Shown: positions 13,184-18,656 of the stretch, in pieces
How the letters are laid out: each line of letters opens with the position of its first letter
How positions within the stretch are numbered: the first letter of the stretch is position 1
Virus record (IMG/VR): IMGVR_UViG_3300027782_000095
Coordinates: 1-58,920 of that record
Source of the DNA: a virus
Taxonomy: Duplodnaviria > Caudoviricetes
Strand: one strand, 5' to 3'
DNA length: 58,920 nucleotides
Notes under the pieces: model-generated
What the model was told of the DNA's origin: nothing
Database searches by the model: none
What the model saw: only the letters and a program-made list of their open reading frames with translations
Translations under genes and position numbers: made by a program

Positions 13184-13501
13184 ATGGAACAGTCAACAAA
13201 CAAACCAACAGTTCAATCTTTTGACGCTATCATCTTGACTATCGATGACGAAGCTCGTCCAAAGTCAAATGGCAAGCACTTCCTTCTTTGCGAAGTGGAG
13301 TTCAAAAGTGGTGCTTTATTAGGGAAGAAGTTCTTCGCTAATCGTACATTAGGCCCAAACAAAACAGAGATTTCTGTGGGACAAGATGTACAAGTGTTAT
13401 TGTCTTTTGCTGAAAGAGATGGCGTGAAGCGTCCTTTCTTTGAGATCAGTACCAGTCGTGTGGCAAGTGCAGAAGAGATTATGGATTTATTGGGTGCGTA
13501 A
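13184..13501 (+). CDS. First early protein, beta-rich (possible OB-fold)
   Basis: Probable start MEQSTNK at 13184 after an A-rich leader. Confidence 0.65.
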   Translation: MEQSTNKPTVQSFDAIILTIDDEARPKSNGKHFLLCEVEFKSGALLGKKFFANRTLGPNKTEISVGQDVQVLLSFAERDGVKRPFFEISTSRVASAEEIMDLLGA

Positions 13502-13631
13502 TCCCATTGTAACAGTATGCATAGTAATATGTGCATACTGTTATTTTTTAGTTTACACCATTGGCTCTGTCCAATGTTATTATATATTGTTTTTTAGTTT
13601 ACACTATTCACTCACAATCTAAAACTTATCT

Positions 13632-13724
13632 ATGTTAGCAACTATCTTAGCTAATGGAACTGTTGTAATCGTTAAGTCTCTTGTAGATGTAATGACTACA
13701 GCAGAAGATGTACGCAATGCGTAA
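13632..13724 (+). CDS. Small peptide (30 aa)
   Basis: Manual translation MLATILANGTVVIVKSLVDVMTTAEDVRNA, with an A-rich leader. Confidence 0.4.
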   Translation: MLATILANGTVVIVKSLVDVMTTAEDVRNA

Positions 13725-13885
13725 TACATCTCATCCAGAGAGAGCTCATCTCTGTTAAACCACTGAGTATCAACTAATTGTGTGTGTGTTTATCTATGTG
13801 GTAGACACACACTCTTTATTCTTTCATCTAATTCAAATAGCACTAATATAGACCACTTTTGGTGGCATTAGATAGCTATAATATA

Positions 13886-14071
13886 TGTTTAATGCATCAT
13901 CTCTACTTCACAAGGGTAGACAAATGTAATATATTGTAACCAGGTAAATAAGCATATTGCTAAATAACCTGAATAATTATGATAAGATAGAAATAGGTTA
14001 TAAGGTATGCTAGCAATACTGAATATAAAACATTATAGTTCCTATTATTACATTTGAATGCAGAGTGGACA
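13886..14071 (+). ncRNA. Twister-like self-cleaving ribozyme with expanded P5
   Basis: P1 TGTT/GACA; U^AA at 13890-13892; P2 TGCA/TGCA; P4 TCTAC/GTAGA; L4 (T)TCACAAGG; T1 CAC/GTG after conserved GA; P5 CAAATGTAATA/TATTACATTTG. T2 is UC/GG rather than GC/GC and L4 has one extra U. Confidence 0.65.
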
Positions 14072-14448
14072 ATTCTATTCTAGGTTATTGGTAATCCTTA
14101 GAAATCATTCAGTTTAATCCAGTATGTCTGTTTAATGCAATCTGGTAATTATGACATACACACACTTAATTCCCTGGAAAGGGTTGTACAGCTTGTAGGC
14201 CATTGTACGTAATGTAAAACAACCTTCTGAATGATGCTAACAGCATTAGATCTAAGCACATCTATAAACTGCTCATTTTATTTAACCACACTATTAGTCG
14301 TATAAAGGACTGATATGCAACACAGATGTCTTCTGGAGTGGTGTTATTATATAGGATTTCTAGCAGTTAGACTTCATTTAACTGTGGCTTTAGTGGTGAT
14401 GCATTAACCACTGTTTTTATTTCCCCAAACATTAAAAATTATTTACAA

Positions 14449-14694
14449 ATGAAAATGGAACTTACACGTAATGCTGACAACAAGGTTGTTGGCTACAAAC
14501 TAATTAAAGAAGAACATGACGATCTAGAAACCTTTGAAAGGGTGAGAGACATGTACTTTTGGGCTTTGGATCAAGAAGTATTGGTGTATGATGGTAGAAA
14601 GAGTGATGATGATGATAATACAACAGAACTCAACTTTGCTACTAAAGCACACCATAAAGAAAAAATGGACAAAATCAATTCTCCAATCATTTAA
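14449..14694 (+). CDS. Hypothetical early protein
   Basis: 81 aa ORF with an A-rich leader. Confidence 0.65.
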   Translation: MKMELTRNADNKVVGYKLIKEEHDDLETFERVRDMYFWALDQEVLVYDGRKSDDDDNTTELNFATKAHHKEKMDKINSPII

Positions 14695-18112: not shown

Positions 18113-18599
18113 GGGCCTGCCTGGTTTTGACAGCAACAAGCAGGTAGTATCACACGCAAGGCGTAGTCAGTAGCCAAACAAACTGATTAACACTTAAAGG
18201 ACAACACAACAGTTGAACTTTCTGATATGACCTTTGATAGCTTAATGGCTTTCATTGGTGCTGACGAAGCTATTGCAGCCTAGTCTCAGACGAGTAGTTA
18301 TACTTTGGAACAGAAAATAGCAAGCGTAAAGACATAGGGTCTTCCTGTGACACTGACCATCCAAGACTATATGATGTAAAAAGAAAGCACAGTCCCAAAT
18401 TTCCTGGATTATTAGGACGTTAAAAACATTAGAAGCCAGGTGGTGGAATCTAACCTATGAGTTAGCCCTATTAGGGTGCAAAAGTCAGCTTAAACACTGA
18501 CTTTAGTACATGAGTTGTCAGCTCATACCTTGACTAAGCGTGTAAAAATGGTATTATTGGCAAATTGTTTGGACAGGGGTTCGAATCCCCTCAGGTCCA
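18113..18599 (+). ncRNA. ssrA: tmRNA
   Basis: Acceptor GGGCCTG/CAGGTCC-A with G3.U70; 5' TGGTTTTGAC; 3' GGAC-AGGGG-TTCGAAT-CCCCT. Tag ORF 18200-18283, after TTAAAG, encodes DNTTVELSDMTFDSLMAFIGADEAIAA*. Confidence 0.92.
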
Positions 18600-18656
18600 C
18601 TGATCGAAAGATTAAGGGAAAACTAAAGGGTTTTTCATAGGATTTGGATTGATAAC

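Follow-up and report, generated by a model that had tools for sequence, protein, structure and literature searches.

The segment at 13886-14071 on the + strand is most probably a phage-borne member of a subfamily of the type-P1 twister class, a self-cleaving RNA that would process a non-coding RNA. It lies in the window, the whole stretch of DNA analyzed here, which is a linear virus record of 58,920 bases from IMG/VR with an estimated completeness of 46% and a G+C content of about 32%. Genes in the window include those for a portal protein, a large terminase, an exonuclease, a DNA polymerase, and a helicase. The motif recurs in a family of viral sequences whose conservation, covariation, and genomic contexts are directly observed, and from these we infer cleavage and a processing role.

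Architecture of the element

The twister class was reportedly described by Roth et al. in 2014. The initial annotation recognized twister core elements, a P5 repeat, and several insert sub-elements in this segment, and a sequence check located all of them. The 5′ strand of P1 (UGUU, 13886-13889) pairs with its 3′ strand (GACA, 14068-14071), and the P1 columns covary in the family. The fourth P1 pair is A-U in the metagenome relative L232, compared to U-A in the window copy. P1 is followed by the predicted scissile U^A step (13890-13891), placed by the Rfam twister-P1 consensus, with A13892 next. The U at position −1 is found in all 87 copies parsed, and the AA after the cut is invariant in alignment A1, though the parsing expression fixed AA.

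The two UGCA strands of P2 (13893-13896 and 14059-14062) form 4 bp and enclose the remainder of the core. L2 begins with the 5′ strand of T2 (UC, 13897-13898), which is complementary to G13915 and G13914. The P4 strands UCUAC (13902-13906) and GUAGA (13916-13920) pair around the L4 loop UUCACAAGG (13907-13915), which bears the T1 strand CAC (13909-13911) and the T2 strand GG (13914-13915). P5 is an 11-nt perfect inverted repeat (13921-13931 and 14046-14056), and the 114 nt between its arms (13932-14045) form a variable insert with no similarity to the inserts of other copies. The 3′ strand of P2 is followed by a G-A step (14063-14064) that is GA in 84 of the 87 copies, with G14063 at the position of the twister catalytic guanine, and then by the 3′ strand of T1 (GUG, 14065-14067), which pairs with C13911, A13910, and C13909.

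In the proposed fold, P1, P2, and P4 would be closed by the pseudoknots T1 (C13909, A13910, and C13911 with G14065, U14066, and G14067) and T2 (U13897 and C13898 with G13914 and G13915). P3 would be absent, and P5 would be a stem at the periphery into which sequence of any kind can be inserted. When 13886-14071 is folded to minimum energy, P1, P2, P4, and P5 all form, at −37.0 kcal/mol (z −1.80). An energy this low or lower was reached by 9 of 200 shuffles, and the energy by itself says little for the element.

Collection of related copies

Copies of the motif were collected by pattern searches. A pattern for the 5′ core (TTTAATGCA, ten free bases, TTCACAAGG), run on viral contigs, matched 11 of them. 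The motif is complete in every one, even though the pattern said nothing about its 3′ half. Four more patterns, each fixing another part of the motif, widened the set; the last of these fixed neither T1 strand and returned at least 120 stretches. Parsing of the fetched loci gave at least 114 5′ halves with at least four of the five P4 pairs. At least 95 of these have a recognizable 3′ half, and at least 87 are distinct full sequences.

The yield of individual patterns was mixed. The pattern for the 3′ half found 46 stretches, comprising 14 full motifs, 1 partial motif (L029), and 31 unrelated sequences that are mostly coding. Another pattern found 73 stretches, in 55 of which the exact P5 5′ strand is missing upstream; these are coding-like except for L011, a true copy with one base different in P5. 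A further 18 of 124 pattern matches were put aside by eye as unrelated coding sequence. Run on 169 loci, a first covariance model, R1, gave 138 rows at E ≤ 0.001, including two partial overlaps in antisense. Cellular genomes (contigs of 185,579 species) were scanned with the CAC-form pattern only, and this produced 6 chance matches, none of which has P4 or a 3′ half.

Covariation within the family

The alignment contains 81 of the 87 distinct sequences, with six longer than 205 nt left out. The structure tested was that of the initial annotation together with both pseudoknots. In these 81 rows, 93.7% of the cells in pair columns are complementary compared to 82.6% in shuffles, and none of 500 shuffles reaches the observed value. 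Sliding the 3′ partners by 1-3 columns reduces the paired cells to 29.6-44.9%. Changes on both sides occur in 17 of 30 pairs, compared to 12.2 in shuffles. All six tested P1 pairs, three P5 pairs, and two of the three T1 pairs vary on both sides. All five P4 pairs do so as well, with 100% of cells paired, a percentage that is biased because parsing demanded at least four of five P4 pairs. P2 is UGCA/UGCA in 85 of the 87 copies and UGUA/UACA, a compensatory change, in two (L055 and L061), so that 4 bp are kept in 87/87. Most patterns fixed the 5′ strand of P2, and the invariance of P2 and of most of P5 is partly due to letters that the patterns prescribed.

The T1 pseudoknot appears in three matched forms, CCC/GGG (58 of 87 copies), CAC/GUG (20 copies, including that of the window), and CCA/UGG (7 copies). 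The triplets are thus matched in 85/87 copies and mismatched in two (L132 and L212). This matching was not imposed by the search, because one pattern left both T1 strands free. In three groups, copies whose inserts are 88-96% identical have differing yet matched T1 triplets (L009, L010, and L056 compared to L144; L060 compared to L223; L061 compared to L208). The T1 strands flank the insert, and T1 differs among copies that share an insert; therefore selection, and not shared descent alone, keeps the pairing. T1 is the strongest evidence against a chance look-alike.

T2 behaves differently from the other helices in that it has no covariation of its own. Its 5′ strand is CC (68 copies) or UC (18 copies) opposite GG, giving complementarity in 86 of 87 copies, and within the family it varies on one side, with C or U opposite G. 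The L4 loop is UUCCCAAGG in 59 copies, UUCACAAGG in 20, UUCCAAAGG in 6, and of another form in 2. U-G pairs are frequent, with 29 at the closing pair of P1, 18 in T2, and several in P5, and their frequency indicates that the + strand is the RNA strand. P1 is weak in many copies, 30 of the 87 having 0-2 contiguous pairs counted from the junction.

The initial annotation proposed a twister-like architecture and looked to relatives for covariation in P2, P4, and T1. Over 81-87 independent copies, covariation is present in these three helices, and that architecture is upheld by P1 and P5 as well. A second model, R2, was built from 60 copies with the CCC and CCA forms only, after the 20 CAC-type rows (including that of the window) and the aberrant L212 were dropped. 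R2 nevertheless finds 13883-14074 in the window with 65.8 bits (E 7.4e-15), compared to 15 bits (E 0.27) for the runner-up. In addition, contigs of relatives from two further sequencing runs contain a GGG-type 3′ half directly before sequence homologous to 14078 onward, and so the ribozyme of these relatives occupies the matching position and has the alternative T1 form.

A rival reading holds that no RNA is involved: AT-rich intergenic DNA would resemble a twister by accident, or the segment would be a repeat that acts at the DNA level, for instance in recombination or in protein binding. The folding z-score of only −1.80 and the AT-rich region would fit it, and the folding energy and the Rfam searches, taken by themselves, would point to such an accident. 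Against these stand 87 copies with compensatory changes in five helices, the strand-specific G-U pairs, and the E-value of 7.4e-15 from the independent model R2, which leave this reading with a vanishingly small probability. By the R2 score, the core is far beyond chance resemblance.

Comparison with twister and other ribozymes

The review PMC5408937 describes the twister fold with a T1 of three Watson-Crick pairs between L4 and L1, a T2 in which a conserved GC in L2 pairs with two bulged L4 nucleotides, a P2 of four pairs, and optional P3 and P5. It names as catalytic residues the A that follows the cut and the G that follows P2 (the role of the G being given in its Table 1), and reports about ten nucleotides in L1 and L4 that are more than 97% conserved.

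The phage family shares with twister type P1 (RF03160) the order of P1, U^AA, a 4-bp P2, L2, the P4 hairpin, and an optional P5, followed by the 3′ strand of P2, G-A, the T1 triplet, and the 3′ strand of P1. In both, the loop of P4 bears both pseudoknot strands, and T1 has 3 bp with its triplet followed by AA. The conserved twister positions that are kept in the window are A13891, A13892, G14063, A14064, the AA in L4, and the first C of T1. The predicted cut at U13890^A13891 and the putative catalytic role of G14063, which the initial annotation took as the position for an inactive control, follow from mapping the element onto the Rfam consensus.

The family also departs from twister. T2 is YC/GG (CC/GG, or UC/GG in the window) compared to GC/GC in twister, so that one pair is flipped on both sides, and L4 has 9 nt with one extra U relative to the twister consensus; the annotation had already listed the UC/GG pairing and the extra U as deviations, a list that comparison with the Rfam twister-P1 consensus bears out. 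L2 is YCA compared to GCC, L4 ends in GG compared to GC, and the pair that closes P4 is variable, whereas it is an invariant G-C in twister. Changed relative to twister are therefore L2 at its first and third positions, L4 at its last, and the P4-closing G-C, and there is the extra U. Unlike the twister-P1 consensus, the family has no P3 and always has P5, whose first pairs are conserved in sequence and which encloses 4 to 292 nt of unrelated sequence. According to PMC11662667 (CHiTA), G-U wobbles in natural twister pseudoknots are tolerated, P5 stem-loops are uncommon yet fully compatible with cleavage, and a manual screen took "NC" as the 5′ strand of the 2-bp pseudoknot.

Standard models do not recognize the element. 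Rfam gave no twister match on it when the whole window was searched at gathering thresholds, none when 13870-14085 (216 nt) was searched at E ≤ 10, and no twister, twister-sister, GOLLD, or ROOL match when 13600-14400 (801 nt) was searched at E ≤ 10. The Rfam twister P1, P3, and P5 models, to which the initial annotation had pointed as a check, thus leave the element unmatched even at E ≤ 10, and in scans of 26 other loci at E-value thresholds they again miss the motif copies. A canonical twister-P1 does occur near one copy, at L166 855-923 (48.5 bits, E 3.6e-8; gathering score 67.2), about 105 nt upstream of the motif, and this canonical twister also has the CCA/UGG form of T1.

Twister-sister, which we take to be RF02681, resembles the phage family in the loop letters around P1 and P2 and in a multi-stem layout. 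It differs in that the phage family has a T1 pseudoknot, matched in 85/87 copies and covarying. The review PMC5408937 states that twister-sister cuts the strand opposite to that cut by twister and that there is no evidence for a pseudoknot in it. Twister-sister identity was excluded by the covarying T1 pseudoknot and the absence of an Rfam twister-sister match.

The departures from the twister consensus raise the question of whether the fold still cleaves. A conserved structured RNA with a twister-like fold could instead have become inactive through the T2 and L4 changes and might bind proteins or serve as a scaffold at the 5′ ends of phage small RNAs. The failure of the Rfam twister models and the differences at several near-invariant twister positions are what such an RNA would predict, as is the conserved sequence at the start of P5, which is dispensable in canonical twisters and is here partly a search effect. 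However, the A and G at the catalytic positions, the U-A step, the 4-bp P2, and the 3-bp T1 are kept under selection, and, set against the consensus, the T2 change is a compensated one. Cutting would also be meaningful at the sites where the copies lie, directly behind GOLLD and between small RNAs and tRNAs. A non-cleaving RNA is accordingly considered unlikely, and the element is strongly supported, within the limits of sequence comparison, as one that would act like a twister and that is best filed as a variant subfamily, not as a member by Rfam criteria.

The locus and its relatives

The element sits inside a 912-nt interval without any ORF of at least 80 aa. A + strand gene ending at 13501 and then terminator-like hairpins form the left flank of the interval, and a + strand ORF starting at 14449 forms the right flank. 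A blastn comparison of 13500-14500 with GenBank phages gave zero matches. The related-locus search found zero loci with the 105-aa upstream protein as query and L002 alone with the 81-aa downstream protein.

L002, a 128-kb contig, is the closest full-length relative, and the element is missing at the matching site. No homologue of the element was found in the whole 128-kb contig by DNA comparison or by model R1. By this comparison of loci, the element is dispensable, since it is missing in L002 at the matching site. At L002 2760-2905 there is a 20-bit relic that has kept the strands of P2 and P5 and has lost P4 and L4.

A conserved block at 13850-13882 (+), ending in TAGATAGCTATAAT, lies immediately upstream of the element, is common to L002, L232, and L233, and occurs once in the window. 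In the initial annotation, the predicted cut would fall near the start of the early transcript. It precedes the motif in L232 and L233, and in L002 no ribozyme follows it. The block may be a promoter, an operator, or a P0-like upstream hairpin element. The upstream block TAGATAGCTATAA was rejected as a recurring promoter of the window, having 3 matches at up to 2 mismatches compared to 6.1 expected.

The P5 insert

The insert is the most variable part of the family. Its length in the 87 copies is 26 to 292 nt (median 74), and the compact copies among the R1 model matches have a loop of 4-8 nt on a short P5 (e.g., L205 5125-5196 and L120 1002-1085). Similarity clustering of the 87 inserts gives 78 clusters, 71 of which are singletons, including that of the window. 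L232, from a metagenome, has core halves identical to those of the window around an unrelated 97-nt insert. In L233 (237-348), also from a metagenome, the 5′ half is identical and is followed by unrelated sequence into an ORF region like that of L002; no 3′ half was found within the 320 nt to the end of the contig. Taken together, the L002 relic and L233 make P5 look like a hot spot for replacement or insertion.

The window insert contains the inverted pairs CAGGT (13941) with ACCTG (13967) and AATAGG (13992) with CCTATT (14041), as well as the complementary segments TATTGCTA (13955) with TAGCAATA (14011) and AGCATAT (13951) with GTATGCT (14005). From this complementarity the initial annotation derived a kissing interaction or switch. 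It proves to be at chance level, as 71 of 300 composition-matched shuffles of the insert contain an 8-nt perfect inverted repeat, and the minimum-energy fold of the insert is one long imperfect hairpin and not two kissing hairpins. Compared to shuffles, the inserts have a median z of −1.16, with 21% below −2 and the window insert at −1.39, and this slight extra structure fits a folded P5 extension. A search of the window for an antisense target of the insert found none, the best match being 16 nt long (E 0.30).

The annotation had further read the element as a regulated or allosteric ribozyme, in which the two hairpins with complementary loops in P5 would sense a signal or toggle between folds. 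Such a switch would account for the insert sub-elements, for the slightly greater structure of the inserts, and for the retention of an insert in most copies. However, the inserts are unrelated in sequence, with 78 clusters among the 87. L232 with an identical core and L233 with an identical 5′ half carry unrelated inserts, and the compact copies make do with a P5 loop of 4-8 nt. The frequency of the inverted repeat in shuffles and the single long hairpin of the predicted fold also speak against it, and relatives sharing the window insert, in which the hairpins could be seen to covary, were sought and none were found. Sequence comparison offers nothing in favor of a conserved sensor domain in the insert, which is not supported, and a switchable ribozyme is very improbable.

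Association with other non-coding RNAs

Copies of the motif occur mainly in non-coding regions. In 77 of 87 copies there is no overlap with an ORF of at least 80 aa, and where the ORF-free interval is bounded, its median length is 1138 nt (n=54). Many loci (e.g., L157, L144, L195, L006, L013, and L021) have two or three copies in the same orientation, at most a few hundred nt apart.

GOLLD is a giant phage RNA of unknown function. Full-length GOLLD matches were found in five loci (L009 10361-10756, L010 4392-4787, L011 641-1036, L056 8250-8642, and L144 4367-4761), which are not all independent lineages; their scores of 83-101 bits (E 1e-20 to 1e-25) fall short of the gathering score, which is 150. 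In all five loci, the GOLLD match ends 2-4 nt before the motif match and 9-12 nt before the predicted cut, in alignment offset. L144 has a further motif copy upstream of GOLLD too.

Other ribozymes and tRNAs are also found nearby. Pistol (RF02679) occurs near the motif in L011 and L006. At L006 (3922-3985 and 8602-8663), a pistol ribozyme (57 bits) precedes a motif copy by about 155 nt, and a freshwater-1 RNA (84 bits) is present at the same locus. Like pistol in L006 and L011, the canonical twister-P1 of L166 is within a few hundred nt of the motif, but both are separate motifs that Rfam recognizes. According to the review PMC5408937, self-cleaving ribozymes are known to cluster together. Same-strand tRNAs are found in 19 of 60 loci, mostly 1-2 kb downstream of the motif. 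At L150 3230-3426 (−), a tRNA begins a few nt from the 3′ end of the motif, and so the ribozyme and this tRNA would share one precursor. In PMC10879173, theta (minimal HDV-like) ribozymes beside tRNAs in gut phages are described, and RNA processing is proposed for them. The phage family resembles these as small, putatively self-cleaving ribozymes in phage non-coding regions near tRNAs, whereas it has another fold, belongs to another family, and lies beside GOLLD, pistol, and small RNAs on what are apparently freshwater phage contigs.

Downstream of the ribozyme in the window, a conserved 75-nt element (14167-14241, +) has stems with compensatory changes. It is 84-86% identical in L002, L151, and L013 and 73% identical in L192, and it matches no Rfam family at E ≤ 10. 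The 75-nt element follows the motif in L151, L013, and L231, lying between two motif copies in L013 and between a strong copy and a weak second match in L231. In L002 and L192 a motif copy lies downstream of it, that of L002 being the relic. In two studies, RNA-library contigs span 14145-14336 (100% identical) and 14181-14342, leave 13560-14144 uncovered, and give a weak hint that 14145-14342 is expressed. The 75-nt element is probably part of an RNA headed by the ribozyme. A hairpin with the stem AGTGGT/ACCACT followed by a T-run (14392-14422, +) was identified by eye, its 9-nt loop exceeding the scanner limit of 8, and is likely to be the end of the non-coding transcript.

Proposed role in RNA processing

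A type-P1 twister cuts near its own 5′ end. The upstream RNA would therefore be trimmed at its 3′ end, while the ribozyme would stay on the downstream RNA. In the preferred reading as a self-cleaving twister variant, cleavage would take place between U13890 and A13891, with A13891 and G14063 acting as the catalytic A and G of twister. The cut would leave a 2′,3′-cyclic phosphate on the upstream RNA and a downstream product that starts with a 5′-OH. In this phage, the downstream product would be a non-coding RNA that holds the 75-nt element and probably ends at the 14392-14422 hairpin and T-run.

Across the family, the ribozyme may act as punctuation of non-coding RNA islands, trimming the 3′ end of GOLLD and separating small RNAs and tRNA precursors. 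A bolder proposal, tentative and rather doubtful, is that the subfamily is dedicated to island punctuation, with each released RNA led by a ribozyme, and that the P5 expansion is a lineage-specific cargo RNA that phages swap when they recombine at the near-identical halves of the ribozyme.

Among the papers listed by literature searches, titles and opening abstract lines mention no phage twister subfamily with an expanded P5 and no link between GOLLD and self-cleaving ribozymes, and the environmental twister alignments of the 2014/2015 founding papers might already contain such sequences. If these RNAs cleave, they widen the twister sequence space by a subfamily in which one T2 pair is flipped, L4 is longer, and P5 can expand. 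Since this subfamily is invisible to standard models, ribozyme censuses of viromes would undercount. Cleavage would also give GOLLD a testable handle, as a cut 9-12 nt past the end of the match hints at 3′-end formation, and would offer ribozyme engineering a naturally occurring twister scaffold whose P5 holds as much as about 290 nt. These phages would then be seen to arrange pistol, twister, GOLLD, small RNAs, and tRNAs as non-coding operons punctuated by ribozymes.

Additional features of the window

The 11 nt with which the motif begins, TGTTTAATGCA, recur exactly at 14129-14139, 243 nt downstream of their first occurrence. This repeat was rejected as a second ribozyme, as the remaining motif is missing and neither covariance model (R1 or R2) matches there. 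A 30-aa ORF (MLATILANGTVVIVKSLVDVMTTAEDVRNA) at 13632-13724 (+) is followed by terminator-like hairpins, and a similar ORF with conservative changes is present in the metagenome relative L233. This ORF is probably a real small gene within the otherwise "non-coding" interval. ARAGORN reported zero tRNA or tmRNA genes in the window, and Rfam matched a tmRNA at 18113-18602 (+) with 61.2 bits (gathering score 47).
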